From positions 1 through 64,000 of IMG/VR virus record IMGVR_UViG_3300006056_000038: a stretch of DNA of 64,000 nucleotides. One strand, 5' to 3'. The DNA comes from a virus. This document shows positions 5,765-25,880 of the stretch, piece after piece (the stretch's first letter is position 1; every line of letters starts with the position of its first letter). Below the pieces are notes generated by a model that ran no database searches, was not told the origin of the DNA, and was given only the letters and a program-made list of their open reading frames with translations. The position numbers and the translations under genes were made by a program.

Positions 5765-7606
5765 TCATTTTGTTGCAGGCGTCCACGAGAAGCGCATATT
5801 ACCGCAATCCCAGATGCGGTCCATGCCGAGGAGTTGGGCGAGTTCCCATTCCTTCATGGAAAGCGCGTCCTCTATACTCATCAACTGGGCTTCCGCGACT
5901 TTTTTGGCAACGACATCTTTTCGATATTGGAATCGATGATGACGATTCCAATAGTTGCCTTTTTTGAAATACCAATAGTTGGGCTTACTGAAGCCTTCGA
6001 ATTTGAACCCGTTCTTGACATATACGGTTCTATCTGGATCGTTGCCGCTCCATCCTATGTCAGCGAACGTGGCTATTTCCTTTGGATTATGTTCAGTGAT
6101 GAAATACGACAGCAATTTCGAAAAAGCTCCCACCACATTATATCCGATTAGGCTGGAAAAACGTATCAACTCAAAAACTCCCTCCTTATCCTCCTTGGTA
6201 CCCAGCGCTCTTCGCCTTCCCCCGAAAGACATTGCCGATACGATCTCATTCTCGTACATGAGACCAAATGTAATTCTTGATGGGGCATCACCTTGTATGT
6301 GGTTTTTTTCGAAGAAGTCGCGCTTATCGACGAATTCCAATGGTACCACCCTGCATTTTCTGGCGCCCAATTTGACTTCACATATACCGATGGACGACAA
6401 TATTCTTGAGATTACCACATCCGGACGGTCCACTATTTCATCTTCGAATACATGGATCAATCTTAATCCACTCTCTTGCGCCATCTTGGTCTTCATCAAG
6501 TGGTATTCCTTTGTTTTACCTCCTCCACGTTCTGCATGATAGTAATTTCCGTTGAATTCTATCGCTATCCCATGGTCTTCCAACACAAAATCCAATTCAT
6601 ATTTCTTGATGTGTCTTCTGGAATTCTCTACGAATTTTATCTCTCTCTCAATCAATGCTTTTCTCAATGCGTTATGCGTCATTGGACTTGTTGGAGAAGG
6701 GAAGCATTTTCTACATATGGGAATGGTTGGACTACAGAATTTTCTCTTGAATTCATTGCTACAGACTAAGCATCGAAATTCATACTCTTTATATCCAATG
6801 CTATCTCTGAATCCAGTGAATTCACCCATGAGCTCTATGTCGTTCGCATTCAGTTGCTGTATCAATGCATACTGCTTTGTACTTTCTATTTTTGAGAACC
6901 ATGCTTCCGTCACCTTTGCTTTATATTCAGATGTTTGAGAATAATACTCCACACCATATCTCTCCTTCGATGTTTTTTTTGCCCTATCCAATATTTCTTC
7001 GCTCTTAAGCGGAACATCAACACCATAATTATTCATCAGGGTTTCCTTGGCTTTCTCCTGAAAATCCAACCGCTTCATTGCATGCGTCTCGCCATAAAGA
7101 TCCATCATTGTCTCTGCGGCCTTCTCTCTATTATTGTAGTTCTCATCCCCATGCACCTCTGATTTTGTTTCACGATTCTGGGGCATGTTGTTGTAATTCT
7201 CGTCCCCGTACTTCTCCAATTTCGTTGCCTTGATCTTTGCTGTTCTTTCATCTCCATGTTCATTCAGCGTATTACGCATGGCTTCCGCAGCCTTCTCTTG
7301 GATCTCCTTCACCATGAACGCGCTCTCCACTCCGTACTTCTCCAAGACCGCCTCCTTGGTTCGTTCCATGCGCGCGGCGATGTTCTCCGGACGTCCCTGC
7401 CAGTCCAAGCGGCATGGTTCGGAACAGAACCTGCGCTCGCGTTTGATGCGTTCTTCGAATTGGGTCGAACACACAGGGCACGTCCGGGTCTCGTAGGTCT
7501 TCCCTCGTTTTATTACGTTCGAGCATTCGCGTGAGCAGGTCTCGCTCTTCGGGAATTTCTTCGTTCCGCCGCATACGGCGCATCCATTTGTTATTTCATT
7601 TGACAT
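5765..7606 (-). CDS. Multidomain protein: N-terminal zinc ribbons, six tandem ~24-aa YG[VD]E..EK.KET repeats, and a Vsr/DUF559-like (PD-(D/E)xK) endonuclease-type domain; homing-endonuclease-like
   Basis: CAVCGG...CSRECSN and CPVCST...CSEPC zinc ribbons. Repeats KYGVESAFMVKEIQEKAAE / KYGDENYNNMPQNRETKSE / VHGDENYNNREKAAET / LYGETHAMKRLDFQEKAKET / NYGVDVPLKSEEILDRAKKT / RYGVEYYSQTSEYKAKVTE. YELDFVLEDHGIAIEFNGNYYH resembles the Vsr-like endonuclease core. Confidence 0.5.
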   Translation of the reverse strand: MSNEITNGCAVCGGTKKFPKSETCSRECSNVIKRGKTYETRTCPVCSTQFEERIKRERRFCSEPCRLDWQGRPENIAARMERTKEAVLEKYGVESAFMVKEIQEKAAEAMRNTLNEHGDERTAKIKATKLEKYGDENYNNMPQNRETKSEVHGDENYNNREKAAETMMDLYGETHAMKRLDFQEKAKETLMNNYGVDVPLKSEEILDRAKKTSKERYGVEYYSQTSEYKAKVTEAWFSKIESTKQYALIQQLNANDIELMGEFTGFRDSIGYKEYEFRCLVCSNEFKRKFCSPTIPICRKCFPSPTSPMTHNALRKALIEREIKFVENSRRHIKKYELDFVLEDHGIAIEFNGNYYHAERGGGKTKEYHLMKTKMAQESGLRLIHVFEDEIVDRPDVVISRILSSIGICEVKLGARKCRVVPLEFVDKRDFFEKNHIQGDAPSRITFGLMYENEIVSAMSFGGRRRALGTKEDKEGVFELIRFSSLIGYNVVGAFSKLLSYFITEHNPKEIATFADIGWSGNDPDRTVYVKNGFKFEGFSKPNYWYFKKGNYWNRHHRFQYRKDVVAKKVAEAQLMSIEDALSMKEWELAQLLGMDRIWDCGNMRFSWTPATK

Positions 7607-7665
7607 TGTACCTACAAGTATTGCTGTTTATAAGTACAAATATATGAAATATTACTTAATAATAG

Positions 7666-7700
7666 AAAAGGCGTCTGACATCAGACGCCTTTTCTATTTA
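7666..7700. terminator. Bidirectional intrinsic terminator downstream of the sheath gene
   Basis: Perfect 13-bp stem AAAAGGCGTCTGA/TCAGACGCCTTTT with a 2-nt loop, flanked by a T-run on both strands (TTTTCTATTT on plus; TTTTCTATTATT on minus). Confidence 0.7.
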
Positions 7701-7712
7701 ATTGACTGGTTA

Positions 7713-10121
7713 TCAGAACTCTTCGAAGTTCGCGCCAGTGGGCAGGATTTGGTATGAGATGTCAATGAATTCTGCCACTCTTGTCGGCTTGATCTGGATC
7801 TTACCGATCAACATGTTCCGGTCGATCGTATCGGCGGTGTTGTTGCTCGCATCCATCGTTACCTTGAAGCCCACCAGACCTCTTTGGTTCTGGATCTGGA
7901 GCAACAGCGGCTCGACCTTTGCAAGGAACTGATCGCGCAGGGTCTGGTCGTTCTGTTCGAACACCAAGGTGATAGCGGCTGCGGACACCAAGCGCTCGAT
8001 GGTCAAGAGCAATCTGCGAACGTTGATACGGTCCAGAGCGCTCTCCTTCACCTGCAAGGTCTTCTGACCCCAGATCAACACACCGTTCTGGGTGCTGTCC
8101 ATGATCGGATTGATACGTCCGGCATACAACACGTCACGTTGAGTCTTGGACAGGCGCACATCGGCGCGGATCACGTTGCTCGGCATTTCACCACGGTTGG
8201 TACCAGCAACACCGTTCCAGCTCTTGTACTTGTTGTCGGTGTAAGCGATGGCGCGGGCCACGGCGAAGCTCGGTGGCAGATAGATCTGACGGCTACTGCT
8301 GACGTCCGATACTTGCACCCAAGGCCAGTAAGTGGCGCCGTAGGTGGTGTCGATACCGGTGAGATCAAGCGCTTCCACGGCCTCGTCAGGAGTTCCCTTG
8401 GTCTGACCAACGGTCAGGCGTGGGGAGTCGATGACGTAGAACAGATCGGCGCGTTCCTCGACCATTTCCAAGGCATACTTCACCAGTTCTTCGTTGTTCT
8501 GGTAATCGATACCCGATGTGCTCAGGACGTTCACGTCCACGCTGGCATCGCTGGCGAAGCAGTCGATCGCATCCTTGTAGGCCTGCACGTTCGACAGTTC
8601 ACCTTCAGCGAATTCTTCGTATGCATTGTCGTACTTCTTGTACTTGTCCCATCCATCGAAACCACCGTAAGGCACAACGGTGAACTTGAGCTTCGCGCGG
8701 TCCAGAGCACCTGCGGAGTTGGTGTAAGCCGTCAAGGAATTCTTGTTGCCGGATGCGAATTCAGTAGGCAACACGGTGTTCTCCATGTGGAAACCGAGCG
8801 TGGTGGTCTTACCGGTGGTGATGGCGCCTTGGAATTGGAACAGGTCATGCTCCACGTTCTGAGCGGCGTTGCGCACACCCACGGCGGAAGAGGTCAGCGC
8901 GGTGTAGCCCAGCTCGGAAACGCCCAAGTAGGTCTTTGGCACAGAGTCCCCCGAGAAGTATGTGGTCTTGTAATAGATGTTCGGACGGATCGTCGCGGTG
9001 TCAGCCCCCACGGAAGTCGTGGTGGAACGAAGCTCGTAACCACGGAAACCGGCAGGAACGGTATCGACAGGGAAACTGTCGGCCATTTCGATCTCGATGA
9101 AGTTTGACTTGCGCACGTACGGCTCATCACCAACGGTACCGATCATGCGGGCGATGAAGCGCGAGTTGTCGACATCCAATGAGAGACGATTGTGGCGCTC
9201 AACGATCGTGAAGGACGTGGCGTCGCTACTATCGTAGTAACGTACAACGATGTCGAACAACTTGTTGTTGAGGTCGATGTTGGCGATGGAGATCTTGACC
9301 TCCCTGTTGGAGGCGTCACCATCGCTGCGGGTGTGGACACGGAACAGGTTCTTCACCGCTCCGCCGATCACGCGCGATACGATCCAAGGCGTCACCGCAT
9401 TGGTGTATCCTGTAGCGTAGTTGGCAAAGTCAGGATTGGTGTCCGGTACGTAGATGAGCGAGGCATTGATGCCGACGATCTCACCACGAGCGGAGGCTTC
9501 TCTCACGAAGTGTGGGAAGATACTCTCGACATACAGGTTAGTGGTATCGGGAATGATCTTCGGGCTCTTGCCGATGGCCTTCGCCAAGTAGTCCGTACGG
9601 GTCTCATCCAACGAAACGCTGAGCGTATTGGCGCTCATCAGGCCGGTGGTACCGCACAGGACGAATGACGAAAGGGCCGAACCTGTGACCGACTGCCAGT
9701 TGCCGAGGACCACATCGGTGGAAGCGCTGAAATACGGAACACCCGAGGCGTCCTTCTTTGAGCGAATGACGGCGAGGGTGGTACCGGACTTCGAACCGCC
9801 CCCTGTGGTACCCGTGAGATTCGCCACCAACAGCCATGCGGGCGAGTTGGTGAAACCCACCTTACCGAGGACCCGGCTGACGAACAACTCGCTCGACTGG
9901 GTCAGGAAGGCATCGGTGGTGTAAGTAGCCGGGAACTCGTAGTTCGTCCCACCGAAACGCAGTACGTTCTCATCTGCGGTGGAGATCTTGATGGCCTCAA
10001 AGGCCGGACCCTTGGGGAATTTACCAACGACCGCGAGCTTGGTGATACCAATTCGCGAGGCGAAGGCGGTGAAGTCCTGTTCGGTTGTGTACACACCGGG
10101 GGAGACGAATACTGTTGCCAT
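7713..10121 (-). CDS. gp18: Tail sheath protein, T4 gp18-like
   Basis: 802 aa. The C-terminal region LDRINVRRLLLTIERL...ADTIDRNMLIGKIQIKPTRVAEFIDISYQILPTGANFEEF aligns with T4 gp18 FDRINVRRLFNMLKTNIG...PSVIDRNEFVATFYIQPARSINYITLNFVATATGADFDEL. Confidence 0.8.
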   Translation of the reverse strand: MATVFVSPGVYTTEQDFTAFASRIGITKLAVVGKFPKGPAFEAIKISTADENVLRFGGTNYEFPATYTTDAFLTQSSELFVSRVLGKVGFTNSPAWLLVANLTGTTGGGSKSGTTLAVIRSKKDASGVPYFSASTDVVLGNWQSVTGSALSSFVLCGTTGLMSANTLSVSLDETRTDYLAKAIGKSPKIIPDTTNLYVESIFPHFVREASARGEIVGINASLIYVPDTNPDFANYATGYTNAVTPWIVSRVIGGAVKNLFRVHTRSDGDASNREVKISIANIDLNNKLFDIVVRYYDSSDATSFTIVERHNRLSLDVDNSRFIARMIGTVGDEPYVRKSNFIEIEMADSFPVDTVPAGFRGYELRSTTTSVGADTATIRPNIYYKTTYFSGDSVPKTYLGVSELGYTALTSSAVGVRNAAQNVEHDLFQFQGAITTGKTTTLGFHMENTVLPTEFASGNKNSLTAYTNSAGALDRAKLKFTVVPYGGFDGWDKYKKYDNAYEEFAEGELSNVQAYKDAIDCFASDASVDVNVLSTSGIDYQNNEELVKYALEMVEERADLFYVIDSPRLTVGQTKGTPDEAVEALDLTGIDTTYGATYWPWVQVSDVSSSRQIYLPPSFAVARAIAYTDNKYKSWNGVAGTNRGEMPSNVIRADVRLSKTQRDVLYAGRINPIMDSTQNGVLIWGQKTLQVKESALDRINVRRLLLTIERLVSAAAITLVFEQNDQTLRDQFLAKVEPLLLQIQNQRGLVGFKVTMDASNNTADTIDRNMLIGKIQIKPTRVAEFIDISYQILPTGANFEEF

Positions 10122-10185
10122 ATCTGTTCTGGTTTTCTTGGGTTGTGGGTTCTATCCTCGGAACGACCGCTCAGGTCGCATTGAA

Positions 10186-10195
10186 CATAAATAGG
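10186..10195 (-). promoter_or_regulatory. CTATTTATG motif upstream of the sheath gene
   Basis: CATAAATAGG on plus (reads CCTATTTATG on the minus strand), between the terminator at 10221-10260 and the sheath ATG at 10121. Confidence 0.45.
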
Positions 10196-10220
10196 CTTGT
10201 TTTTCTCGGAACATCACGGA

Positions 10221-10260
10221 AGAGAAAAAAAGAAAGCGGAACCTTGTTCGTTCCGCTTTC
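10221..10260 (-). terminator. Intrinsic terminator (minus strand) after the 102-aa gene
   Basis: Minus strand reads GAAAGCGGAAC-gaacaag-GTTCCGCTTTC followed by TTTTTTTCTCTT. Confidence 0.7.
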
Positions 10261-10283
10261 TTTGCCTTTCATGCTATTGTGGA

Positions 10284-10592
10284 TCAGTTGTATTTGATCT
10301 CGAAACGCCCTTTGACTTGCTTGGTCTCGGAGATCCCTTTGCGGTGATCGCTCGAAGCAGTAGCCACCGATAGGCCATCCTTGTAGGGATTGGTGATGTT
10401 GGTGGTGGTGGCGCTCATGGACACCGGCTTGGCGGTGAAATTGCTGATGGTCATCACGTTCTTCACCGCGTTGATATCAACGAGCCCAGCGACGTTCAAA
10501 CTCTCGAACGGCTTGAGCTTCACTTTTTGCATCTTGCCTCCCACCTTGTAGTGGAATGTGGTCGACTTGGCTCTGTTGTTGGTGACTTTCAT
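10284..10592 (-). CDS. Hypothetical small protein (structural module)
   Basis: 102 aa; preceded by CTATTTATGG (10615-10624 on plus as CCATAAATAG) about 22 nt upstream. Confidence 0.45.
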   Translation of the reverse strand: MKVTNNRAKSTTFHYKVGGKMQKVKLKPFESLNVAGLVDINAVKNVMTISNFTAKPVSMSATTTNITNPYKDGLSVATASSDHRKGISETKQVKGRFEIKYN

Positions 10593-10638
10593 AGGGTTGG
10601 TTTTATGGTTGTCCCCATAAATAGCAGGGCAATGATGG

Positions 10639-11350
10639 TCAGTCGCGGTTTTCGGAGATTTTTATCGAAACACGCGTCACGGCGTTCACTTTCTCGAACT
10701 GCTTGGGGTCAACGAGCTTCCCGAACACCGTGATGGGGATGGCGATCTGGAATATCCGCTCGTCGTTCACTTCGATCTTATTGTCCTCCGAAGGGTCCTG
10801 CATGGTGCTGCGAATCTGGTACCCGTTGATGTTCATGTAGGCCTGACCGCTGGTGTAGTGGTCGCGCATCACGATCTCGTAGAACTTGTTGACGTCCTCC
10901 ATGTAGGAGGAAACGAAGCGGAGTTCGTACTCCACATCGACATAACTGGGTTGAGGAATTTTGTACAAGTCGTATTCCTTGGTGGATCCATTGAATTTGG
11001 GCACCTTCCGGAACACGAACTTGCGCTTCACTGGAATGGTGCGCTTGAGCGGGGACGTTCCCTGCTTCACGCCTCGTCGTGCAATGGCGATGAAGGGACG
11101 GGAGATCTCCTCCCCCTGTTCATTGGTCATGATGTGCCAATGCTGTTTGCGCTCGGCCCAAAGCTCCTGACCCACCCAGATGACAGGTACGGTGCGCATG
11201 TTGTTCCCGTTATCCAACGCGAAGCCCGCAGCATTGAACAGCTCGAACAAACCGTGATCGAAATCCTCTATCTCCAACTTCTGCGGGAGATATCCGGCAT
11301 TCTCGAAGCTCTTGTCCAATTGCGATCCAATATTGTCGGATATGCTCATG
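10639..11350 (-). CDS. Hypothetical structural-module protein (the track start at 11364 is TTG; an ATG lies 4-5 codons in)
   Basis: About 237 aa; CTATTTACC motif 3 nt upstream of the ATG. Note: hand-counted coordinates near 11341 disagree with the track by 1 nt. Confidence 0.45.
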
Positions 11351-11848
11351 CAGGTAAATAGCAAGGCGCATGGAACGATGCGGCATCATTCAAAACCACT
11401 TCCCCTCTTTCCTTCCGAATGAAAGGATTTCCATATCAATCCGGCATTCAAGGCGGATCATCAATTATTTTCTTCCTAGAACTTGACTTTGTCAAAAGAG
11501 AACGTATCTTTGCCTCGCTTTTGCCGCCCTATAAAGCTGTTTCTTTTTGAGGGGATTTGATCAGATGGGCGGACTTTGTACTGCAAGCGCAAGTTGCGAG
11601 CAGGGCAAAATTCAAACCAACCAACTCACGTAAAAAATCGTGGGGAGGAAAGGAGGGGGTTTGAATTTTGGAACTCTTCGAGTTCTTTTCCCTGACTTCG
11701 CAAGATCTCCCTTCTGGAATTCTTCTACTACAGAATATCATCCAGAAAAGAGAGAGAAATTTAATACTTGATGTAGAAGAATTCTACATCATAACAAGGG
11801 AAAAAATCGATGTTAGAGTTGCTCTCCATGCAGAAGGAAAATTCCCTC

Positions 11849-12409
11849 TCACCTTGCCTTGAAGACATCCTCGTCGACCTCGTTCGCTTTTATCGTAATG
11901 GCAAATCTTCTGTCCCCTCCGTACGAGAACTCATTGTTCAATTGGGAGAACCCATCATCGACGATCTTGAAGTACTGACCTTTGAACATGATGAAGTCCC
12001 CAACCTTCAGGTCCAACTGCACATGTTGTCCATCCCGTTTGATGAGAAGACCCAATTCCACCAGATGTTCGAGATACACATGGGCCGTCATTGCGCCCGG
12101 ACCGCGTTTCATGATGCCTCCCGCTGTTTGCTGGCTTACGGGATTTGATTCGATGTCCAATCTTCCGTAAACCTCCACGTGTTCCTTGTAGACCTTGCGT
12201 TTGCTCTCCCCGTAGAAATTGGGAACGGTCTTCTTCAGATCGACGCGGTACAAGAGAAAGCTCTCCTTGAGCCAACTTTCGGAGAGTTCTCGACCAACGG
12301 ATGACAGGAAGGCAACATCCTCCTCTCCCAAGAACAGCTCAATGCCCTTGGGCTTGTGTTCATGAGCATCTTGCTCTTGTGGTTGCCCTTGTATCTCGTT
12401 GATGTCCAT
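11849..12409 (-). CDS. Hypothetical protein (tail/baseplate module)
   Basis: 186 aa; translationally coupled to the upstream 389-aa gene (12410). Confidence 0.45.
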   Translation of the reverse strand: MDINEIQGQPQEQDAHEHKPKGIELFLGEEDVAFLSSVGRELSESWLKESFLLYRVDLKKTVPNFYGESKRKVYKEHVEVYGRLDIESNPVSQQTAGGIMKRGPGAMTAHVYLEHLVELGLLIKRDGQHVQLDLKVGDFIMFKGQYFKIVDDGFSQLNNEFSYGGDRRFAITIKANEVDEDVFKAR

Positions 12410-13579: not shown

Positions 13580-13583
13580 GGGA

Positions 13584-13859
13584 TCAGTTTGACTTTATTT
13601 GGGTCAGTGCGCCCATGTTGTTGGGCGAGAAGCCACAGAAAGTACCACTGCTGACGTTGATGCCGGAACAGAGTAGTTCAATGCTTTGTCCGGCCGTCAA
13701 CGATACGGTAAGCGATCCACCTCCGATGGCGGTCACCGTGACGCTCCCTGCGGTCATGCAGAACACCTCATGAACGATCGGGCGTGTAGCCGTTCCGAAG
13801 GGTCCATTGGTGCCACCGGAAAGGGAGACGATCTTGTAGTTGGAGTTCGCTGTGGCCAT
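13584..13859 (-). CDS. Hypothetical small beta-rich protein
   Basis: 91 aa, Gly/Ser/Thr-rich. Confidence 0.4.
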   Translation of the reverse strand: MATANSNYKIVSLSGGTNGPFGTATRPIVHEVFCMTAGSVTVTAIGGGSLTVSLTAGQSIELLCSGINVSSGTFCGFSPNNMGALTQIKSN

Positions 13860-13870
13860 GTTCGTTTTTG

Positions 13871-13889
13871 CTATTTGAACCTAAATAGG
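13871..13889. promoter_or_regulatory. Divergent motif pair CTATTTGAAC / CTAAATAGG between 13859(-) and 13932(+)
   Basis: Inverted repeat CTATTT-gaacc-TAAATAG, a variant of the CTATTTATGG family. Confidence 0.4.
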
Positions 13890-13931
13890 ATGGGGTTCGT
13901 TCCTCATCGGCCCTTTCAAATCGAAAACAAC

Positions 13932-14333
13932 ATGAAAAAGAGCAAATTCTCCAAATTGTTGAACGGCGAGGGAAAACACATCCTGTTCTTCGATGGCGAC
14001 GTCTCACGTATCGGCCGCGTGGTGGAAGCGGCCGATACGGATACCGTAGTGGTGCAGATCGATGAGCGAGAGAAGAAGAAGGTCAAGCGTCCCGATGTGA
14101 TCGGGAAGGTGAAGCGTTATAGTTGGTTCCCCATGGACCGCATGCCTCCGGAGAACAAGCAGCTCCTATTGGAGCATAAGGACGGGAGCATCCGCATGGG
14201 AAAACTCCTTGGTCCGGACGCGGCGGAGTTCTACGAAGTGGACCGGACCCATTTCCACGACCCGTATTGGCATCGGCCGTTCCCGATGAGCGACTTCACC
14301 CATTGGTGCTTGGTTCAGGGTCGAAAGCCTTGA
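13932..14333 (+). CDS. Hypothetical protein
   Basis: 134 aa from MKKSKFSKLLNGEG... Confidence 0.4.
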   Translation: MKKSKFSKLLNGEGKHILFFDGDVSRIGRVVEAADTDTVVVQIDEREKKKVKRPDVIGKVKRYSWFPMDRMPPENKQLLLEHKDGSIRMGKLLGPDAAEFYEVDRTHFHDPYWHRPFPMSDFTHWCLVQGRKP

Positions 14334-16970: not shown

Positions 16971-18030
16971 TCAAGCCACGTAATGGGTCAACTCGAATGA
17001 GTTGTTCATGCCGTACACTTGAATATTGAGCGTCTTGTTCGCGGGCTTTCCATTGAAGGTCAGTCCAATGGCTGTCGAGAATGTATCCCCAACGGCAGGC
17101 TTTCCGGGTCCTGTCGTTATCTGGTTGAACCAATCCTGCTCGTCCACCACGAACCCCTTCTTCTCCGCCGTGTCCTTGGCGTGCTGAACGGCTGCGCTGA
17201 AGGTGGGAAAGTAGATGTTGGCGTTGTGCTTTGCGGAGTAAGCCTCTGCGTACACTTTTGTTGCCAAACCATCGAGGTCGGGTTTGCCCAATCTCGCCGG
17301 GTCATAGATGCCGCACTTGTAGCCTTCATGGTCATACACCGTGATCACCGATGTCCCATCGCGGACCTCGACCGCCCGGAACGTCAATGGTTCACCGTCT
17401 TCATCTTCATATCTCGACTTGTCCGTCAATAGTTGGGCCAGTTTGTTGGCATAATCGGTCGGAAGATGGATGGACAACTCCCGTACAGCATCCGAATTCT
17501 CCTCCATTACAGGCTCGGCCTCCAGTCCGTTATCGGCGTTCTGTTCGTCGCTCTTCAAGGCCGATACCATGCTCTTGGTCAACGCCCCATGGACCTCCGG
17601 CCCGAAGCGCTCCATAACACCGTTCCGCTCGCGCATGTCGAACAATTCGCCTCCGCACAGAAAGGCAAGGACGTTATCGAGCTTGAAGTTCCTGAAGCTT
17701 CCTTTGGCGGCCAAAGCCGCGTCCCCGGACTCCCTCTTGAGCTTGATGAAGACATTGGTGTCGTAGGCCGTCATCAGGTTGTTGTTCTGCAACTTGTTGG
17801 CTTGGGCGTCGGTCTTCTCGACGTCGCTGCGGATGTAAGCGGTCAAGCTCCTGCGGAAGGCCATGTGGCGCACCGTTCCGTCCTTCTTGACGAAGGCCAC
17901 GCTGATGGTGATGTTGCGCCTGTAGTAGTCCTTCACCTTCTGGGGCAGGTCGTCGAAGGTGAGGGCCGATCCTGAAATGCCTTCATAGGCTTCTTGGACC
18001 AATTTTCGGATGATGCGGCGGATATCCATG
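16971..18030 (-). CDS. CTS-family protein
   Basis: From MDIRRIIRKLVQEAYE (trimmed from the track start at 18059); 353 aa. Confidence 0.5.
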
Positions 18031-18034
18031 AACG

Positions 18035-18055
18035 TAAATAGAGCACTATTTATGT
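18035..18055. promoter_or_regulatory. Palindromic motif GTAAATAG-agca-CTATTTATG in the divergent region
   Basis: 3 nt upstream of the ATG of 18030(-) and 14 nt upstream of 18069(+). Confidence 0.5.
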
Positions 18056-18068
18056 TCAAACCTCATTC

Positions 18069-19611
18069 CATGTCGAAGCGCACCATCAAACTCTCCTCCC
18101 TCTCCGAGGGCCTCCGCAAAGAAGTCAAGAAGCACCTCAAGGAGGGAAGGACCAAGTTGGGTCAGATGCCTACTCGTCTGAGAAAACTTATTGAATCAGA
18201 GGCTTTCTATGGCACTGACTCTGACGAGTACAGACCGGATATGGAAAGTTCTTCCCGAGCCATCCCTAAGTTCACGCTGAAACCACGCAAAAATGCAGGC
18301 GAGTTTGAGGGGGAGAGCGGGCCATGGAAGGTGTGGATTTATACATATAACGATGGTAAGAAGTTCGGATGGACGCTACTCCATCGAGGCGAGTCTCTCG
18401 TTGGGGGAGAAGGGCATAGCTCGCTAAAGGCCGCTTGTAAGGCTGCGGAGAAAGAGGCGACACTAGATCGTTACCAGCACCTCAAGGAGGGCAGGACGAA
18501 GATGAGCCAGATGCCGCCGAAGCTGAAGCGGTTGATAGAGAATGAGACTGTAGGCAAAAAAGAATTCATTAAGAATTTAGGAAATGCTGGTGTTTATGGA
18601 AAGCCAGATATGTATTATGATCATTCTAAAAATATGGCTATAGCTGTTAATGTGTATGATAGGACAGGTCAAAAAACTGAAGATACATCGCCTCGATATC
18701 CATATCCATTACCTCAAGTCGCAGGCGTGACGCACCAAATCGATAAAGAAAACAGAGAGAAGTTTATGGATAAAAGATGCGAATGGTGTGTTTATAGCTC
18801 CGCACATTCCGAGTTAATTCACGAAATTGGAGTGCTACAAAACAACGGTCCATCAGCAACCAACGCTATGAATGCTAGAGCAAGCGATGATGAAGGTGGA
18901 TATTTTGAAGAACAAAAAACCATCAACCTCTCATCCCTCTCCGAGGGTCTCCGCAAGGAAGTCAAGAAGCACCTCAAGGAGGGCAGGACGAAGATGTCCA
19001 TGCTGCCATCTAAGTTGGCAAACAAGATCTTGATTGAGATGGAACATGACAGTTCAGGAAACCCCATTGCTCCTTGGGATAGAAAAGGACCCAAATCGCC
19101 TCATGGAAGTGATTTGCCGTATGTCCCTCATTCGCGCATCAACGCAGGAACCTATGATATAGATGGCGAATTTAGTAGCAGCGACGATATTGGCGATGAT
19201 GACAATTTCAATGTCAATGTCGATGATACTGAACTACTGAGCGCAATGGAGGATGCAAAAATGCAAAGCGAAAACGGATATGTCGTCCATGTGAACAAGT
19301 CACCAAAAGGCGACTACGAATTGAGCGACTGGTATGACGACGAATCGACTGTTGCAAGCTATGAAAATGGAAGAAAGCTCAACGAAAACAAACGTGCCAG
19401 CATGAAAAACAAGCAGATCAAACTCTCCTCCCTCTCCGAGGGCCTACGCAAGGAAGTGAAGAAGCACCTCAAGGAGGGCAGGACCAAATTGGGACAGATG
19501 CCGCCGAAGTTGGCAAACGAGATCTTGAGCGAAATGAATGACATGGGGTCACAATTTGATAGCTCAGGAAATCCCATTCTTCCTTGGGGAAGCAATGGTT
19601 CTAGCAAATAG
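18069..19611 (+). CDS. Modular repeat protein with four or more copies of KLSSLSEGLRKEVKKHLKEGRTK[LM][GS]QMP.KL
   Basis: Start MSKRTIKLSSL after the motif. Protein-level repeats at about residues 1, 140, 300 and 470. The underlying DNA repeats (about 18087, 18474, 18912, 19410) are roughly 85% identical. A second repeat, SSGNPI[AL]PW, is also present. Confidence 0.55.
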
Positions 19612-19713
19612 TTCCGTCGTTCATTGCTTTTTATGACAAAGAGCGACATTATTTTCCTTCTTCATGGACGGCACCGTTAGCGTGTTTGATGATATGGTGG
19701 ATGTTCTGGGTGA

Positions 19714-20013
19714 TCATACGCGCTGGCTCAGCGCGCCACGGATTATCGAGCGGAGGAACCGCTCGTTCACCACAGGGGTTCCCATCCGCTTTTGAACGGC
19801 GGCATCGTATTGTTGCTTGATGTTGTCGGAGGACATCTCGTATTGTTCGTCAGTCAATTTATGTCCACTCTCCGCCGTCTTCAACGCATACTGAAGTCGT
19901 ATGATAAAGGAACCTGCCCGTTCTGTACGACTCCAAAATGATCGATCGTACGAGGCGGCGTAATTCCATTGGCCATAAATATGGCCATATTTAGCTTTGA
20001 TGGACATTCGACG
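19714..20013 (-). CDS. Doubtful small ORF (would contain the 19973-19994 motif inside its coding sequence)
   Basis: Track ORF 19714-20073; low-complexity, W/Y-rich. Confidence 0.2.
   Translation of the reverse strand, partial: RRMSIKAKYGHIYGQWNYAASYDRSFWSRTERAGSFIIRLQYALKTAESGHKLTDEQYEMSSDNIKQQYDAAVQKRMGTPVVNERFLRSIIRGALSQRV
19973..19994. promoter_or_regulatory. Palindromic motif CCATAAATATGG-CCATATTTAG
   Basis: Perfect inverted repeat ending 5 nt before the ATG of 20000(+). Confidence 0.5.
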
Positions 20014-20632
20014 TATGATCAGGAACATCCTCTTGGAGGAAGCGTCCGGCATCGCCTTCGAAACGCAACACACGGCCAGCTATCACGGCCAGAGCAATTT
20101 CACGCTTCGTCTTCTGGCGAACGGAAGAGAGGTTGCGCATTTGGATTACACCATCTTTCAAGGCGAGACGCAGATCGCCATGGTGGAGGTCCCGCGTCCG
20201 GAGGACAAGCGAAAGGGATACGGCCGCATGCTGGTGGACCGCTTGGCGCAGGAGCGCGGCGGATACGATAAGATCCAATGGGGCTCCATGACCCCCGATG
20301 GCGCGGCGCTGCAACAGGCCATGGACCGCGAAAAGAACTTCGACCGGGAGGAGCACGAGAACCTGCATTATCGGCAAGAGGACATGATCGCTCTCATCTC
20401 GAAGAAAGGCAAGAACGCGGCCGGGTTCTTTCGGGACACATGCGCAATAGGATACGAGGCGGCATGGCAGAAATGGGCCGCCAACATCAAGGATTCCCAC
20501 ATTGACGGGATCGATCAGAGCGACCTCAGCGACCTAGCCGAATGGACGCGTGGATCGGTCGAGAACCATCATCCCAAGGATTGGGAACCTCAGGATTGGG
20601 TGCAGCGGTTCGTGGCGGAGTTGAGGGCTTGA
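20000..20632 (+). CDS. GNAT-family N-acetyltransferase with CTS-like N-terminus
   Basis: N-terminus MDIRRMIRNILLEE. Motif-A-like segment QIAMVEVPRPEDKRKGYGRMLVDRLAQERG (R-x-x-G-x-G). Confidence 0.55.
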   Translation: MDIRRMIRNILLEEASGIAFETQHTASYHGQSNFTLRLLANGREVAHLDYTIFQGETQIAMVEVPRPEDKRKGYGRMLVDRLAQERGGYDKIQWGSMTPDGAALQQAMDREKNFDREEHENLHYRQEDMIALISKKGKNAAGFFRDTCAIGYEAAWQKWAANIKDSHIDGIDQSDLSDLAEWTRGSVENHHPKDWEPQDWVQRFVAELRA

Positions 20633-20683
20633 TCGAGATCAAACCATTCCGGTTTGGATGGCATTATCGCCATATTTATGTAC

Positions 20684-21604
20684 ATGGATATCAAGAAGTT
20701 GATCAAGAACATGATAGCAGAGGTAGCGGGCGTGCAATTGAACGTAAAACGCCTGTCCGAGATAATGGCGGACGTGACCATTGACCATATTATATCAACC
20801 GCCCAAAAGAGAAAGGACATATTGGACGGGGAACATTGGAATGTTCCATTTGGATATGAACCACCAGCCATGATATCAGGAGACACATGGATAAGGACGG
20901 TCGAAGTGTCGGTCGAATTCTGCAACTCACCAAGGGAAGAGCCGACAGGGTCATTCCAATCCAGCAAGACCAAGAAGCACAGCAAGCCGGAGTCCTCCTA
21001 TTCCATATCCATAGGACTTGTTGTTCATGTTCCAATAGCGGAATTGAAGAACGAAAGAACAGCACTGCGATCGATATTCGCCCACGAGCTCAACCACGCC
21101 TTCGTGTTCATCCACGACGTGAACAAAAAGTCGGCCGTCTTGAACGCCAAAAACAGGCGCATTGGCGCAGCCTACAGCGAGGACCCCGGAGTCCAATTGT
21201 TGAATAAGGCCATCTACCTCTCCAACCCCATGGAGATACAAGCAAGAATTCAAGACATCGGCGGTCTGGTGGACGACTTGATGAGCACCACCGCAGAGGA
21301 CGCTCTTTCTGAGCTTCTATTGTACCAGCCGATGCGAGAGTTGTCAGAACTGAACAACATGGACTTCAGAAAGATCGAGCGCACGCAGGCCGTTCAGGAC
21401 TTCGCGCGCAAAATGGGCGGAGATGACGTTATGCAATTCATTTCGGACCTCAACAGAAAGCGCAAGACATCGGCATTCCAAGCCTTGAAGAAAGTCTATC
21501 GCCTCGTCTCGGACCGATACAGCGTCAACGAGGAGTTCTGGATCGATGCCGAAGCGTATAGCATCATCCATGAGAGCGATTGGCCGCCGAGGGAACTCCT
21601 ATGA
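20684..21604 (+). CDS. HExxH zinc-metallopeptidase-like protein with CTS-like N-terminus
   Basis: N-terminus MDIKKLIKNMIAE. HExxH motif in IFAHELNHAFVFIHD. CATATTTATG motif (20671-20680) 3 nt upstream. Confidence 0.5.
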   Translation: MDIKKLIKNMIAEVAGVQLNVKRLSEIMADVTIDHIISTAQKRKDILDGEHWNVPFGYEPPAMISGDTWIRTVEVSVEFCNSPREEPTGSFQSSKTKKHSKPESSYSISIGLVVHVPIAELKNERTALRSIFAHELNHAFVFIHDVNKKSAVLNAKNRRIGAAYSEDPGVQLLNKAIYLSNPMEIQARIQDIGGLVDDLMSTTAEDALSELLLYQPMRELSELNNMDFRKIERTQAVQDFARKMGGDDVMQFISDLNRKRKTSAFQALKKVYRLVSDRYSVNEEFWIDAEAYSIIHESDWPPRELL

Positions 21605-23008
21605 GGACTTTTCCTTCTTTTCGCCAAGCAATTTGTCCAGCACGGCCCTGCCCTCATCCGTTGAGGCCATGCCCGTCAGCATACCGGCGATGTCGACGCC
21701 TCCGCCCGGATTGAACATCCCCATAATGCCCTTCACGCTGCCGGGGATGTTCCCGCCGCTCCCCACGATCTTGATATCGGCTTTCTCCAGCGCTACCGCC
21801 ATTGCCTTTCCTACAACTTCGTTGGCCTCTACCTGACGGTTGTCGATCAAGTATTTCTGGTATTCTGGAGATCCAGCGATCTTCTCGGCCAACTTGATCT
21901 GAGCGTCCACTGGAGCCATCAGCTTCGCCTTCTCGGCCTCTCCCTCCGCCTTGCCTTTAGCGGCAATGCCCTCGGCGTTCTTGAGCGAAGCGAACAGCAT
22001 GCCTTCGGCCAACGTCTGAGTGGCGGCCTTTTCGCCGTCCGCCTTTACCGTCATCACCTCCTTCTCTTGTTGGGCGTTCACCACCGCAACGTTCTTGTTT
22101 TGTTCCGCCAACACTTCAGCGGCCTTCTTGCTGATCTCCGCCTTGCGGACGGTGTTGATGGATAGCACCTCCATCTCCTTTACCGTCGTGATGGCCGTCT
22201 GTTCCTGCACGGACTGTGTGGCCTTTTCCTTTGCGATGCCTATCTCCCGCACCCGCTCAGCCTCACGAATACCAACAGCTTGTAATGCCTGTTGGTCTTG
22301 AATGTCGATCTCGCGTTTGGCCGATATCTCCGCAAGCTTTGCGATACGACCGTGATCGGCCACCTGAACGCGGCTTTCTTGATCGATGCGCGCCTGTTCC
22401 TTGGCCATGATGTTATGGATGACGTTCGACTTCTGTTCCGTAGAATCCCGCAGGTCCATGAACTCGATCATCTTGACGGTCTGAACGCCCCACTCCTTGA
22501 TGTTGTCGTCTACTTCGTCGGTGAACTGCTTCCCCAAGGTGGAACGTTGATGCATGATCTCCTCCAATTGATTGGTAGCGAGGATCCGGCGGACGGCACC
22601 TTGCAACACGGAATGCAATTGCGTTTCCAATTCCCTGAAAGATGCCACCCGCTGCGCGGCGGTATCGGAATTCGCTATCCTGAAGAATGCGGATACATCC
22701 ACCACGAACGGAAGTCTGGCCGAATCGTAAGCTTCATAATTCGCAAGGCTGACCTGAAAGACACTTTCAGGCATCTCAACTTTGGTCACACCAATAATGG
22801 GGAACCACGTAGGCCATTCATAATAGACGTTCCCGCTATCCCTTCCTCGTCCATACGAGGTGGTCTTTTTGCCCGTCTGCACGATGTGGACCGTGTTGGT
22901 CGGGACCACGCGGCGCAAAAAGAGAGCGGAAAAGAGCCCGATGGCGAGGGCGATAACGCCGATCACAATGAGGATGGTCGGCCAATTGGAGAATAGGTTC
23001 TGTATCAT
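21599..23008 (-). CDS. SPFH/band-7 (flotillin/prohibitin-like) membrane protein
   Basis: N-terminal TM helix (WPTILIVIGVIALAIGLFSALFL), then SPFH-type core and a long Ala/Glu/Lys coiled-coil tail (AEISKKAAEVLAEQNKNVAVVNAQQEKE...). Confidence 0.65.
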   Translation of the reverse strand: MIQNLFSNWPTILIVIGVIALAIGLFSALFLRRVVPTNTVHIVQTGKKTTSYGRGRDSGNVYYEWPTWFPIIGVTKVEMPESVFQVSLANYEAYDSARLPFVVDVSAFFRIANSDTAAQRVASFRELETQLHSVLQGAVRRILATNQLEEIMHQRSTLGKQFTDEVDDNIKEWGVQTVKMIEFMDLRDSTEQKSNVIHNIMAKEQARIDQESRVQVADHGRIAKLAEISAKREIDIQDQQALQAVGIREAERVREIGIAKEKATQSVQEQTAITTVKEMEVLSINTVRKAEISKKAAEVLAEQNKNVAVVNAQQEKEVMTVKADGEKAATQTLAEGMLFASLKNAEGIAAKGKAEGEAEKAKLMAPVDAQIKLAEKIAGSPEYQKYLIDNRQVEANEVVGKAMAVALEKADIKIVGSGGNIPGSVKGIMGMFNPGGGVDIAGMLTGMASTDEGRAVLDKLLGEKKEKSS

Positions 23009-23048
23009 GGCGCCAAAGATAACAAAAGAAATGTCAACTTGTAGCGGG

Positions 23049-23065
23049 CCCGATATTATCGGCGT
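23049..23065. promoter_or_regulatory. Palindrome GCCGATAATATCGGC next to a TTGACA and a TATCTTTG (TAnnTTTG-like) element upstream of the SPFH gene
   Basis: The minus strand reads ...GCCGATAATATCGGGCCCGCTACAAGTTGACATTTCTTTTGTTATCTTTGGCGCCATG. Confidence 0.35.
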
Positions 23066-23081
23066 CCGTAATGTGAAACGG

Positions 23082-25880
23082 TCATTGGTTGGAAGTTTGT
23101 TTATTGCATGTGATCAATGCCTGTCTTTTTTCCTGACCTCCACTACGCATGTAATGCGACTTCTTCACACCATAGTACTCTGTTGAAACAATGGTGAACC
23201 CTGCGTTCAACAGGCAATGAGAAAGTTCAACGACATACTTCTCGTTCATATCCAGAACCATCTTTCCGCTCGTCTTCAGATAGGCATGACAGTTTACAAG
23301 GACGGGGAGTAATTCCTTTGCGAACCATGTCTGGGTGTCCAAACCTTTTGGAGTTTCGCTATACGAATACAGTTCATCGTAATAGAAAGGAGGAGATGTG
23401 AAGATGAAATCCACCCTCCCCTTCAAACTCTCTTGGTACACCTTGGAGTCACCGAATGTCACCGTGCAATTCTTCAGGTCCTTTTCCTTGATGATGCGTT
23501 CATATCCATCCTTAAGATGGAGGTTTATGTCATTGCCGACGTAATGTGCTCCTCGTTCGCAGCAAGCGAGCATGCGGCTGCCCCAGCCAGCATATGGGTC
23601 ATACACCACATCGTCGTATTGCACATTGTTCTGATATACGCCCCTTGCTTGCTCGATAGGGAATACCCCCACGTTGTACACGGTTCTCACCGCAATACCG
23701 CGATACAACTGCATGATGGAGACATCGAACAGCTCCTTCTTCTTGTTCAGCCCCAGACGGTACTTCACCACTTCCCTTAAAACACCCTTGTCTTGAAATA
23801 TGTCAAATAACCCCTTCTCTCTCTTATGAGAACGATAATAGGAATCGGCGAACACGCCTTTCAACCACGATACTGTAGTGGGTCTCTTCGATAGATCGAT
23901 ACAATCCTTTATGTACTTCTCCGGAGGGTAGAACGTGGTCCAGAATTCCAGAAGAGTGTCAACTAGATCTTCATTCTTCAGCATCTCATCTCTGCCTCTT
24001 TCGCAATACTCCTTGCTGAATATTATGTCATGCTCTTTAAGGCGCAACAGCGGATGGTCTTGAAGATTGATTTCGTATCTATCCAAGAATGTGATCAAGT
24101 CATTCTCTGAATTGAATTTTTGTGGCGCATGCTGCTTCACGTCTTTCTCACGAATGCGGTAAAGGCGATAGCCGCTTTCTTTTGCTACTTCGTCTTTCTT
24201 GACGTCACGGACGAAATTCAATATCTGCTTGAAATGATATCCTCCCTTGCTGACATATCCGTGCCAGTAATCCCCATCCAATTCTATCAATATCTTCCTG
24301 TCTTCCAAGCACCAATCGAACATGAACTTACCAACAGATTTCTGCTTCCGTATTCCTTGAAGTTCGCAAGTGGCTTCACGGAATGCTCGTTCCAGTTTGT
24401 TCTCCTTATATGTCTGCTTGGTTTTGTTGTACAATATGGCGGTATCTGACATTTTCTTCGATGTCGTACTGTTGAATATGCCCTTAGCTCCATACTTCTC
24501 TTTGTACATCGTATGGTCCATACCATGGACTGCCAAATGTGTTTGGGTTATGGCTCTCAATTTCTCTCCACAAACACCACACTCTACCCAATTTTGAGGA
24601 TTGACCTGCATGTCGATTGCGTTCGCCTTTTTCTGTTCGATACGCTCAAGCTCTGTTTTGAATAGCAGGCTTTCTTCTTCATGAATTTTCACGTGTTCCT
24701 CTACTGTAAGGTTATGCACACTTACAATGTGTGTGGTATACCATCCGCTGGCATTTGAGAGATCATTGGTGGTCCAATCGCAGTACGCGCATTTCCTCTT
24801 TTCTTGTACAACATTATCTACTTCATTGAAATCGAAATGTTCGTAGTACCACGGCTTTCCTGTGGTCTTGAAAAACTCGCGCTTCTTTGTGTTGGTCTCA
24901 TGCTCCATATCGGGCATTATCCTCTCAAGGTGCCTCGTTATGATGCCGGATGCATTCAAGTAATCAGGAAAACGTTCTCCGGTCTGCCTACAAATCGCCA
25001 CATAATTCTTCCCTTCTTCGAAGAAGGATGGCATCCCCTTCTTGTCGAAACGGATGTTCTGCTTGGCTTTTTCTGACCTCAAACGTTTGTACTCCTCAAG
25101 GCGCTCATGTTTGTTGGGCCAATCCTCCAACGGAGGGAATGGAACGAACATGTTCCACTCCATAAGCACGCGATGAATGAGACTTGAGCTCATACCGACC
25201 GCTTCTTCCAGCGCGCGCATGGAAAGGCCGTCCTCCAAATATCCTTTCTTGATGACCGTGAACTGCGCTTCGGTGATCTCCGCGCGTGGCTGATACTGAT
25301 ATGTGCGCGCCTCCTTTGGCTGCGGTTGGATGAATTCGAAGTGGTCCACGAACCATGGTCGCCCTTGTTCGGTTTGGAACTTCTTCTTTTTGAAGTCGCT
25401 CTGGTCCGCCATGGGGACCCTCAGTTTTCTCAAATGTGCCGTAAGGGCCCCGGATGCGTTACGGAAGTCATCAAACTCCTTTCCTGTGGCCTTACATACG
25501 GCCACATACTCGACGCCCGGTTTGAAGAACGGTGCGGGCACGGTAATGAGAGGGTTACCGTGATTCCATTTCCTGTCGCGCTCTTCATCGGAACCATCGG
25601 CGCCAACATATAACCCAACCTCTTGAAGTGTTTTCGTACACCACATGAGGCTTCGCCCCATTTCGGTCGCCATCCGACTCAATGGTAATTTGTCTTTCAG
25701 ATGTAAACGGGCCAGATTCAGGATGTCCTCCGATGTGGCTTCTACTTTTTTGATGCTTCCTCCCATGCAACAAAGGTAGTACATCAATTCATATATTCCA
25801 AATTTGCCGAATGACTTTACTCCATCTAAAGGAATTATGACGATCTTTCTTGAAATATAACAAAAGAGAAAGGCGACCAT
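23082..25880 (-). CDS. Fusion protein: triplicated Cys-motif DNA-binding repeats + Vsr/DUF559-like endonuclease domain + C-terminal DNA (N6-adenine/N4-cytosine-type) methyltransferase
   Basis: Three repeats of C..TG..F.D..NASG..T.HL (VCKATGKEFDDFRNASGALTAHL, ICRQTGERFPDYLNASGIITRHL, CAYCDWTTNDLSNASGWYTTHI). RKILIELDGDYWHGY matches the Vsr-like PD-(D/E)xK core. The MTase segment has motif I VVYDPYAGWGSR and motif IV FIFTSPPFYYDEL. Confidence 0.65.
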   Translation of the reverse strand: MVAFLFCYISRKIVIIPLDGVKSFGKFGIYELMYYLCCMGGSIKKVEATSEDILNLARLHLKDKLPLSRMATEMGRSLMWCTKTLQEVGLYVGADGSDEERDRKWNHGNPLITVPAPFFKPGVEYVAVCKATGKEFDDFRNASGALTAHLRKLRVPMADQSDFKKKKFQTEQGRPWFVDHFEFIQPQPKEARTYQYQPRAEITEAQFTVIKKGYLEDGLSMRALEEAVGMSSSLIHRVLMEWNMFVPFPPLEDWPNKHERLEEYKRLRSEKAKQNIRFDKKGMPSFFEEGKNYVAICRQTGERFPDYLNASGIITRHLERIMPDMEHETNTKKREFFKTTGKPWYYEHFDFNEVDNVVQEKRKCAYCDWTTNDLSNASGWYTTHIVSVHNLTVEEHVKIHEEESLLFKTELERIEQKKANAIDMQVNPQNWVECGVCGEKLRAITQTHLAVHGMDHTMYKEKYGAKGIFNSTTSKKMSDTAILYNKTKQTYKENKLERAFREATCELQGIRKQKSVGKFMFDWCLEDRKILIELDGDYWHGYVSKGGYHFKQILNFVRDVKKDEVAKESGYRLYRIREKDVKQHAPQKFNSENDLITFLDRYEINLQDHPLLRLKEHDIIFSKEYCERGRDEMLKNEDLVDTLLEFWTTFYPPEKYIKDCIDLSKRPTTVSWLKGVFADSYYRSHKREKGLFDIFQDKGVLREVVKYRLGLNKKKELFDVSIMQLYRGIAVRTVYNVGVFPIEQARGVYQNNVQYDDVVYDPYAGWGSRMLACCERGAHYVGNDINLHLKDGYERIIKEKDLKNCTVTFGDSKVYQESLKGRVDFIFTSPPFYYDELYSYSETPKGLDTQTWFAKELLPVLVNCHAYLKTSGKMVLDMNEKYVVELSHCLLNAGFTIVSTEYYGVKKSHYMRSGGQEKRQALITCNKQTSNQ

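Follow-up and report, generated by a model that had tools for sequence, protein, structure and literature searches.

Two probable homing endonuclease genes behind the capsid and tail-sheath genes of a T4-like phage, each joining a Vsr-type nuclease to a predicted base-modifying domain

Here we describe two genes of a T4-like myovirus that are very probably free-standing homing endonuclease genes. They lie in a 64,000-nucleotide (nt) stretch of DNA (hereafter the window; positions 1-64,000 of IMG/VR record IMGVR_UViG_3300006056_000038), where the tail-sheath gene (10121-7713, minus strand; PHROG 23) and the gp23-like major capsid gene (27565-25925, minus strand; PHROG 138) are each closed by a strong terminator hairpin, beyond which lies one open reading frame (ORF) that the initial annotation had flagged. 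Both ORFs, of 613 amino acids (aa; 5765-7606, minus strand) and 932 aa (23082-25880, minus strand), are present. The first occupies the slot after the sheath gene; the second, in the slot after the capsid gene, encodes a Vsr-nuclease/methyltransferase homing endonuclease whose product is most likely 894 aa long (23082-25766, minus strand). Each protein is built of three parts: an N-terminal array that would read a long site, a Vsr-type nuclease and a C-terminal domain predicted to modify bases, which is a methyltransferase (MTase) in the large protein and a Mom-like GNAT domain in the other. We lean slightly towards the view that both genes are active or recently active, and that the modifier gives site-specific self-immunity; taken by itself, the assignment of this role to the modifier is tentative, at just under an even chance. 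Megablast of both gene regions against 50,697 phage records returned zero matches, and there is thus no close annotated relative. Below, loci or contigs of relatives carry L-numbers and database proteins P-numbers, and residues of the large protein follow the numbering of the 932-aa mechanical ORF.

The 613-aa gene belongs to an already known kind, the Hef-type genes, and its product has the sequence features expected of a typical Hef-type (Vsr-like, EDxHD) free-standing homing endonuclease. It matches PHROG 3339/559, annotated as 'homing endonuclease' (E = 2e-104; phrog_3339 over residues 146-608), and has 285 homologues. By tblastn it matched 433 phage records, including Hef of Campylobacter CP220/CPt10 and hef of Klebsiella RaK2. 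Annotated Hef proteins align with 81-97% of its length, and the similarity covers the full length, including the domain that follows the nuclease (...DRIWDCG...). The paper on I-Bth0305I placed Hef-type proteins within the Vsr-like 'EDxHD' family (PMC3239194). The N-terminal DNA-binding region (6887-7582, minus strand) has two CxxC zinc ribbons within residues 9-70, and residues 88-240 form seven YG-type DUF7487 repeats (Pfam DUF7487, E = 4.6e-29, four stretches). The ribbons had been noted before, and a regular-expression count finds their four CxxC pairs; the tandem YG repeats had been noted too, and the same kind of count gives seven of them rather than six. The nuclease core (6392-6655, minus strand; YELDF ... 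IEFNGNYYH ... HLMKTK ... FEDE), which the initial annotation had recognized from IAIEFNGNYYH, scores 21.2 bits against Pfam DUF559. All Pfam calls here are judged against each model's own cutoff (DUF559, 20.6 bits; N6_N4_Mtase, 26.7; Mom, 27.1; ROS_MUCR, 25.4). A family profile of 66 homologues (A2) matches the nuclease domain of I-Bth0305I (3R3P) with E = 2e-7, and D40, E51 and H58 (alignment numbering) are near-invariant or invariant among them. In terms of the EDxHD residues, D338, N352 (the x position) and H357 are conserved, and a conserved His (YHL) apparently takes the place of the last Asp. NCBIfam and PADLOC scans of the protein found nothing. The gene has a G+C content (GC) of 0.448 versus 0.563 in the sheath gene, from which it is separated by a terminator hairpin (7661-7698, minus strand) with 18-nt arms of 100% complementarity, followed by a T-run.

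The domain of ~200 aa that follows the nuclease in Hef-type proteins (5777-6379, minus strand, in the window; NHIQG, ELIRF, GAFSKLL, FADIGWSG, VYVKNGF, DRIWDCG) was missed in the initial annotation, whose Vsr-like call for both proteins holds. Profile and model comparisons indicate a Mom-like GNAT domain, with predicted activity. An AlphaFold (AF2) model of residues 300-613 has a mean predicted local distance difference test score (pLDDT) of 94.8, and a Foldseek search of the PDB with the C-terminal domain returned Mu Mom (8BV8) as the best match (E = 1e-7), generic GNATs following from 5e-5. Pfam Mom (PF25680) reaches 30.8 bits in the homologue P0004, above its cutoff, and is precomputed for about a quarter of the 120 homologues listed; hhalign of the Hef family with Mu Mom gave E = 1e-3, a weak match to a template that is a single sequence. 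Mu Mom is a GNAT-fold enzyme that places a glycine-derived group on adenine N6 in DNA by way of Gly-tRNA, and H48, R101, S114, D139, R141 and Y149 (231-aa numbering) are functionally critical in it (PMC7261163, PMC13219725). As placed by hhalign, these residues are conserved in 66, 66, 58, 66, 60 and 66, respectively, of 66 Hef-type sequences. At residues 514-521 (6044-6067) the window protein reads FADIGWSG, where 60 of the 66 homologues have Arg (ADxRW). Gly at this position, equivalent to Mom R141/R151, is common to the window copy, L085 and L086; L090 and more distant orthologues keep the Arg.

The large gene most likely starts at ATG 25766 (M39), to judge from its relatives: an identical 894-aa database twin on other contigs (P0001) and the orthologues P0002 and P0003 all begin with MGG(S/N/K)IK at this codon, and the extension upstream of M39 is closed in L001 and L003. 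The initial annotation had placed the start in the loop of the terminator hairpin of the capsid gene. That hairpin is real (25867-25896, minus strand; 13-bp stem plus T-run), and the ATG at 25880 that it holds is spurious, an artefact of taking the longest ORF. With the loop ATG being no more than the earliest ATG in the mechanical ORF, the accompanying idea of tight translational control fails. The GC of the gene is 0.466 versus 0.556 in the capsid gene.

The N-terminal array of the large protein (24483-25766, minus strand) comprises two helix-turn-helix (HTH) plus 'C..TG..F.D..NASG..T.HL ... PW..HF.F' modules, a C2H2 finger (residue 364) and a putative MucR/Ros-type finger (residue 434). The three C..[TC]...N.SG..T.H repeats reported earlier are indeed present, at residues 129, 297 and 364. 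Repeats 1 and 2 have one Cys each and lie within an internal duplication of ~66 aa (42% identity, E = 3e-20), and are thus not complete zinc fingers. The MucR-type C2H2 finger at residue 434 (CGVCGEKLRAITQTHLAVHGMDH) scores 22.2 bits against Pfam ROS_MUCR (PF05443), below the cutoff of 25.4; in the homologue P0010 the same model reaches 32.2 bits, above it, and the profile matches Ros (2jsp) with E = 0.04. A search with the full-length protein returned nine relatives only. Among these, P0002-P0008 have the N-terminal half in common with the window protein, but end in a Hef-type nuclease and a Mom-like domain.

The C-terminal half belongs to a different and larger set. With its 463 aa as query, 16 proteins of 600-740 aa span nuclease, connector and MTase, and when 1.84 billion cluster representatives were searched exhaustively with phmmer, 203 matched at E ≤ 1e-10, ~45 of the best 150 covering both the nuclease and the MTase domains. 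The nuclease core (24129-24422, minus strand; ILIELDGDYWH) scores 25.6 bits against DUF559, above cutoff, and the Vsr model itself is above cutoff in the homologue P0020; the large-protein profile (A1) matches I-Bth0305I (3r3p) with E = 6e-3. In an alignment of 18 Vsr-MTase sequences, D53, E64, G67 and H71 (alignment numbering) are invariant and E28, D66, N86, D90 and K93 are at least 90% conserved; the EDxHD residues E497, D522, D535 (the x position), H540 and D559 are all either invariant or at least 90% conserved. An AF2 model of the C-terminal half (pLDDT 87.9, predicted TM-score (pTM) 0.81) shows a Vsr-like alpha/beta domain, a connector of mostly helices (residues 123-263 of the modelled fragment; 23676-24128, minus strand; conserved throughout the family) and a class I methyltransferase, and nothing beyond these three parts.

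The C-terminal amino-methyltransferase called in the initial annotation is likewise borne out by Pfam (N6_N4_Mtase, PF01555; 27.9 bits versus a cutoff of 26.7). The domain (23106-23675, minus strand) has the motif order X-I-...-IV, with motif I DPYAGWGSR at residues 761-769 (23574-23600) and motif IV DFIFTSPPF at residues 824-832 (23385-23411), and has no target recognition domain (TRD). The motifs DPxxGxGxR, DxN, DxxFTxPP, ExY, N and K are invariant or nearly so in the 18-sequence alignment, motifs I and IV being invariant, and the MTase motifs are at least 90% conserved across 144 representatives. Motifs I and IV fit the patterns of nucleic-acid amino-methyltransferases (N6-A, N4-C or N2-G), D/E-x-x-x-G-x-G for the SAM-binding motif I and (D/N/S)PP(Y/F/W) for the catalytic motif IV, on a class I Rossmann fold. 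By sequence, the neighbours of the domain are PADLOC mad2 (E = 5e-13), Type II beta-class enzymes (aligned in two permuted pieces), N4-cytosine and N6-adenine DNA methyltransferases in the PDB, and, at 38% identity, a 328-aa protein that stands alone in Twort-like Staphylococcus phages and is annotated as 'DNA methyltransferase'. The fold is that of a class I methyltransferase, and in fold searches the tRNA m2G enzymes TrmN, Trm11 and Trm14 rank first, together with generic methyltransferases; no Type IIG enzyme is among the top fold matches. The neighbours are thus split between DNA MTases by sequence and tRNA m2G MTases by fold. The motif order is that of a circularly permuted amino-methyltransferase, putatively of the N6-adenine or N4-cytosine type, and the fusion context argues for DNA as its probable substrate.

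This MTase clade appears to be an accessory of homing endonucleases in general. A Pfam scan of long representatives that carry it (79 in a batch and 10 singly) found the DNA-binding modules DUF7487 in 20 and MucR in 18, as well as DUF723, NUMOD3/4 and zf-BED. The nucleases fused to it are Vsr in 13 proteins, HNH in two and in P0264, LAGLIDADG in two and GIY-YIG in one (P0227); three have a PvuRts1I-like N-terminal domain.

Both slots are polymorphic among related phages, which is a direct observation. Among relatives with capsid proteins 63-95% identical to that of the window, we compared what stands right after the capsid terminator. A Vsr-MTase gene is found there in the window and L003, a Hef-type gene with the same kind of N terminus in L001, L006, L008, L010 and L015, and no related gene in L004, L005, L007, L009 and L011-L014. 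The downstream genes are the same in two loci with an empty slot (L007 and L009) and two with an occupied one (L008 and L015), and homology between L004 and the window ends 2 nt past the capsid stop codon. In all eight cases examined, down to 26% identity and whatever follows, the gene immediately 5' of the Vsr-MTase gene is a gp23-like gene of the same strand, and zinc-finger (ZnF)-Hef genes likewise lie directly 3' of a gp23-like gene. The sheath slot is empty in L084, L087 and L088 and occupied in L085, L086 and L090. L086 and L087 are 96% identical on both sides of it, and, starting at the sheath stop codon, L086 contains an insert of 2808 bp that L087 lacks. Some 870 bp of this insert (L086 8860-9731) lie beyond the endonuclease gene and include an opposite-strand homologue of the window ORF 5029-5274, so that the mobile unit may carry a passenger gene. 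In L091 and L106 (~8568-9401), what is left of a Hef-type gene in the sheath slot is its N-terminal (DUF7487) part alone, apparently a decaying remnant of the same element. Both window genes have a GC of 45-47%, versus 55-58.5% in their neighbours. Slot polymorphism, low GC, the PHROG match and the profile matches to I-Bth0305I together make a selfish, homing nature the best fit among the options that the initial annotation had offered.

The large protein is also visibly chimeric. Over its N-terminal 425 aa it shares 76% identity with the L001 Hef-type protein; compared with the L003 protein, the connector and MTase are 79% identical and the nuclease 50%, whereas the N terminus is only 30-37% identical. 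These differing identities indicate that the DNA-binding array and the nuclease-modifier cassette have different histories: the array half would derive from the capsid-slot Hef-type genes and the nuclease-MTase half from the Vsr-MTase family. The 894-aa protein is thus best described as a domain-swapped allele of Hef-type genes whose place in close relatives is likewise the capsid slot, and one slot, with one type of array, appears able to take either a Mom-type or an MTase-type cassette.

The 5' region of the large gene contains an inverted copy of capsid coding sequence. The copy (25807-25841, minus strand) lies over a -10-like CATAAT, and the other arm of the inverted repeat is a segment of the capsid gene itself (25998-26032, minus strand; codons DPNDFTPRKGIMT), which is a candidate recognition site. 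The repeat, seen directly in the DNA, spans 35 nt with 83% complementarity, and equivalents of the copy measure 40 nt in L001 and L002 and 33 nt in L165. It scores 17 in the window and 20 in L001, versus 8.3 ± 0.9 and 8.6 ± 1.0, respectively, in 200 dinucleotide shuffles with a maximum of 12. In the 64-kb window there are exactly two occurrences of the 14-mer AATGACTTTACTCC, one in each arm of the repeat, and one position covaries, with TTTAC in both window arms and TTCAC in both arms of L001. Of 16 loci with the element, 10 have a core motif, TGAYTTTACTCC, once or twice upstream of the gene, on the downstream side of the capsid gene, versus one weak match in the eight loci without it; ~0.06 matches per locus are expected by chance. 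The motif is inverted in the window clade and L003 and direct in L156, L159, L160 and L161. Copy number differs between lineages as well as orientation: L003 has two tandem inverted copies (GGAGTCAAGTCAT and GGAGTCAAATCAT) at 9940-9995, upstream of its Vsr-MTase gene, and L160 and L161 have two direct copies each. The variable orientation suggests a protein-binding site, that is, an operator resembling the target, rather than an RNA helix, and the direct copies in L156 and L159-L161 disfavour RNA pairing as a general role. By analogy with I-TevI, the copy is probably an operator that mimics the target, and autorepression is predicted. A comparable copy of sheath sequence upstream of the 613-aa gene was considered and rejected: the 33-39-nt inverted repeats of L089 and L101 score 10 versus 10.2 ± 1.3 in shuffles, and in the window an inverted-repeat search of the region upstream of that gene shows the terminator only.

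Taken together, these features suggest the following scheme. Each gene, lodged with its own promoter-like region just past the terminator of a conserved late gene, would produce a protein that, in a mixed infection, binds the corresponding target in a phage without the element; for the large protein this would be the 3' part of the capsid gene, with a candidate binding site, ...AATGACTTTACTCC..., ~95 nt before the capsid stop codon. The nuclease would cut near the site, and recombinational repair would then copy the gene in. The modifying domain would mark the same site on the resident genome, which could then stay intact and uncut, the outcome being a single-chain, long-site immunity resembling restriction-modification (R-M). 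The copy of the site that precedes the gene would serve as the operator for autorepression, as in I-TevI. In element-bearing genomes, the core 13-mer of the capsid gene is identical to that of some genomes that lack the element; should this be where the endonuclease binds, immunity would not be explained by divergence of the motif. That the intron-encoded I-Bth0305I has no modifier fits a need for immunity only when the insertion leaves the target unsplit.

Several observations weigh against this scheme. The candidate target site is derived only from the repeat, and the real cut could fall instead within intergenic DNA that the insertion has displaced; in both slots homology goes no further than the stop codon, and a cut in such displaced DNA would call for no immunity. 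In the window clade a read-through RNA would fold the repeat into a helix (z = -6.65), and the repeat could there act as an RNA duplex instead. The motif is absent from AT-rich relatives that have short Hef-type genes in the capsid slot. The Gly at the position of an essential Arg means that the Mom-like domain of the window may be inactive or impaired, and the fold neighbours of the modelled methyltransferase are RNA enzymes.

Other readings of the same proteins have to be considered. The initial annotation described the large protein as either a homing endonuclease-MTase chimera within a selfish module, which agrees with the evidence above, or a Type IIG/IIL enzyme, which does not. As a phage-borne single-chain R-M enzyme, the protein would attack the DNA of rival phages or the host at many sites and methylate its own genome, with spread as a by-product. 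The nuclease does lie N-terminal to the MTase in one chain, with a helical connector between them as in Type IIG/IIL enzymes; the nearest MTases by sequence are those of R-M and defence systems (mad2 and Type II, above), and both catalytic centres are conserved. However, the protein has neither an MTase domain of the PF02384/Eco57I type (gamma-class N6-adenine) nor a C-terminal TRD, and the top fold matches contain no Type IIG enzyme. Recognition would rely instead on long homing-endonuclease-type arrays in common with Hef-type genes, the candidate site AATGACTTTACTCC occurs only twice in 64 kb, and the constant position after gp23-like genes (eight of eight), with presence and absence in the slot, is that of a mobile element. 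We consider this explanation unlikely. The modifying domains might also be anti-restriction cargo, a benefit by which a selfish nuclease gene is retained, with modification unrelated to the nuclease target. Mu Mom is an anti-restriction enzyme (PMC7261163, PMC13219725), and the MTase has stand-alone homologues in the Twort-like phages. Against this, the MTase lacks a TRD and, in most of the long relatives scanned, forms one chain with a long-site array, so that modification would be confined to very few sites; it recurs with four nuclease classes and does not stand alone in these phages; and the Mom-like domain is present in 66 of 66 aligned Hef-type proteins with its catalytic equivalents largely conserved. 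We regard the cargo explanation as rather improbable, and anti-restriction, a role raised in the initial annotation, is unlikely to be the main one because the MTase is always tethered in these phages to long-site arrays and a nuclease.

That the modifier helps the nuclease instead of protecting the genome has, in our estimate, little probability. It might flip or modify a base and so create the distortion that a Vsr-type, mismatch-nicking nuclease acts on, or serve as a non-catalytic clamp or dimerization domain. Vsr recognizes a distorted T:G site, but I-Bth0305I cuts normal DNA without such a domain (PMC3239194). The pTM of the model suggests a fixed arrangement of nuclease and MTase, and the 613-aa copy, otherwise intact, lacks one residue essential in Mom; yet cofactor-binding and catalytic motifs are conserved far past the needs of a clamp. 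Finally, both genes could be decaying, inactive remnants of homing endonuclease genes kept by chance. Decay after fixation is common in such genes, N-terminus-only remnants occupy the sheath slot of L091 and L106, and the R to G change affects the Mom-like domain of the 613-aa copy. Both ORFs are nevertheless full length with all nuclease and MTase motif residues intact, and the identical 894-aa twin exists on other contigs, which leaves decay very improbable.

The proposal that these genes are homing endonuclease genes with a self-protecting modifier invites a broader one. Free-standing homing endonucleases of the Vsr, HNH, GIY-YIG and LAGLIDADG types could include an unrecognized class of 'self-marking' gene-drive enzymes, each with its own site-directed modifier; we find this possible and, on present grounds, rather doubtful. 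In such a class the modifier (the MTase clade or a Mom-like GNAT, the latter maybe aminoacyl-tRNA-dependent) would immunize the intact target of the resident genome, so that an invariant coding sequence such as the capsid gene could be attacked, and modifier cassettes could be swapped between alleles of the same slot. How free-standing homing endonucleases with an intact target spare themselves is usually attributed, for each case separately, to target polymorphism; a modifier in the protein itself would be a general answer. It would also blur the border between homing endonucleases and R-M systems, extend Mom-type modification from anti-restriction to the immunity of selfish elements, offer long-site, programmable-looking MTase/nuclease modules as possible tools, and account for the capsid and sheath genes of T4-like phages as recombination hot spots. 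Searches of the available literature found no fusions of Mom or of methyltransferases to homing endonucleases. Descriptions of Mom-like domains in Hef-type endonucleases, of this endonuclease-associated MTase clade or of the capsid-sequence copy were found neither in the Mom papers and the I-Bth0305I paper nor in full-text searches, a body of literature that did not include the original Hef paper.

Other parts of the window contain further genes that look mobile or acquired. The prohead protease gene (Peptidase_S77, gp21-like; 28988-30811, minus strand) holds an intein of ~390 aa (residues ~87-478) with a LAGLIDADG domain, which the orthologues of L001, L004, L159 and L161 contain and those of L003 and L005-L014 lack. 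Immediately upstream of the protease gene, a 395-aa ORF (30894-32081, minus strand; GC 0.447) is 51% identical over 390 aa to this intein and has no counterpart in L001; with neither exteins nor an N-terminal Cys, it resembles a free-standing LAGLIDADG gene of intein origin. An 8-kb island of 40% GC (46000-54600, plus strand) encodes an FkbM-type methyltransferase, a nucleotidyl transferase, a second methyltransferase, a DHBP synthase (RibB, E = 7e-69) and a transaldolase, a content that suggests an acquired cluster for auxiliary metabolism or sugar modification. A 533-aa ORF (18010-19611, plus strand; GC 0.465), on the strand opposite to its neighbours and with no convincing PHROGs or Pfam match, may be another acquired gene.

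The closest known systems include the Hef-type/EDxHD set (I-Bth0305I, PDB 3R3P; Hef of the T4-like phage U5, of CP220/CPt10 and of RaK2), with which both window proteins have in common the Vsr-like core with its conserved acidic and His residues, a modular N-terminal DNA-binding region, and a mobile, sporadic occurrence beside conserved phage genes. I-Bth0305I differs in being intron-encoded, in its length of 266 aa and in having no C-terminal modifying domain (PMC3239194); Hef-type proteins differ from the 894-aa protein in that the methyltransferase replaces their post-nuclease domain. Mu Mom is a stand-alone anti-restriction enzyme acting at short SAS motifs and has R141, whereas the Mom-like domain of Hef-type proteins forms one protein with a nuclease and a long-site array, and the window copy has Gly in place of that Arg. 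The closest sequence relatives of the MTase, the beta-class N4-cytosine/N6-adenine enzymes (PF01555; M.PvuII-like) and Mad2 of MADS, have the same motif X-I region and a motif IV of S/DPP(F/Y), from which the window domain departs by its permuted order (I before IV), its missing TRD and the tRNA m2G enzymes at the head of its fold search. The homing endonuclease I-TevI represses its own synthesis by binding an operator similar to its homing site and positioned over the promoter of its gene. The copy of a conserved gene over a -10-like element upstream of the large gene resembles this arrangement, with a putative role in repression; I-TevI belongs to another endonuclease family, and the window-clade copy differs further in being inverted and able to pair as RNA. 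The Type IIG/IIL enzymes (for example, MmeI, BpuSI and Eco57I) are like the 894-aa protein in combining nuclease, helical connector and amino-methyltransferase, in that order, in one chain and possibly in discriminating self from non-self by methylation, but the window protein has a Vsr-type nuclease and N-terminal HTH/zinc-finger recognition arrays, and is encoded by a slot-specific mobile gene. The 894-aa gene is a novel variation: it encodes an endonuclease of the Hef lineage with a methyltransferase cassette, which perhaps works like a Type IIG enzyme while not being a member of that group.

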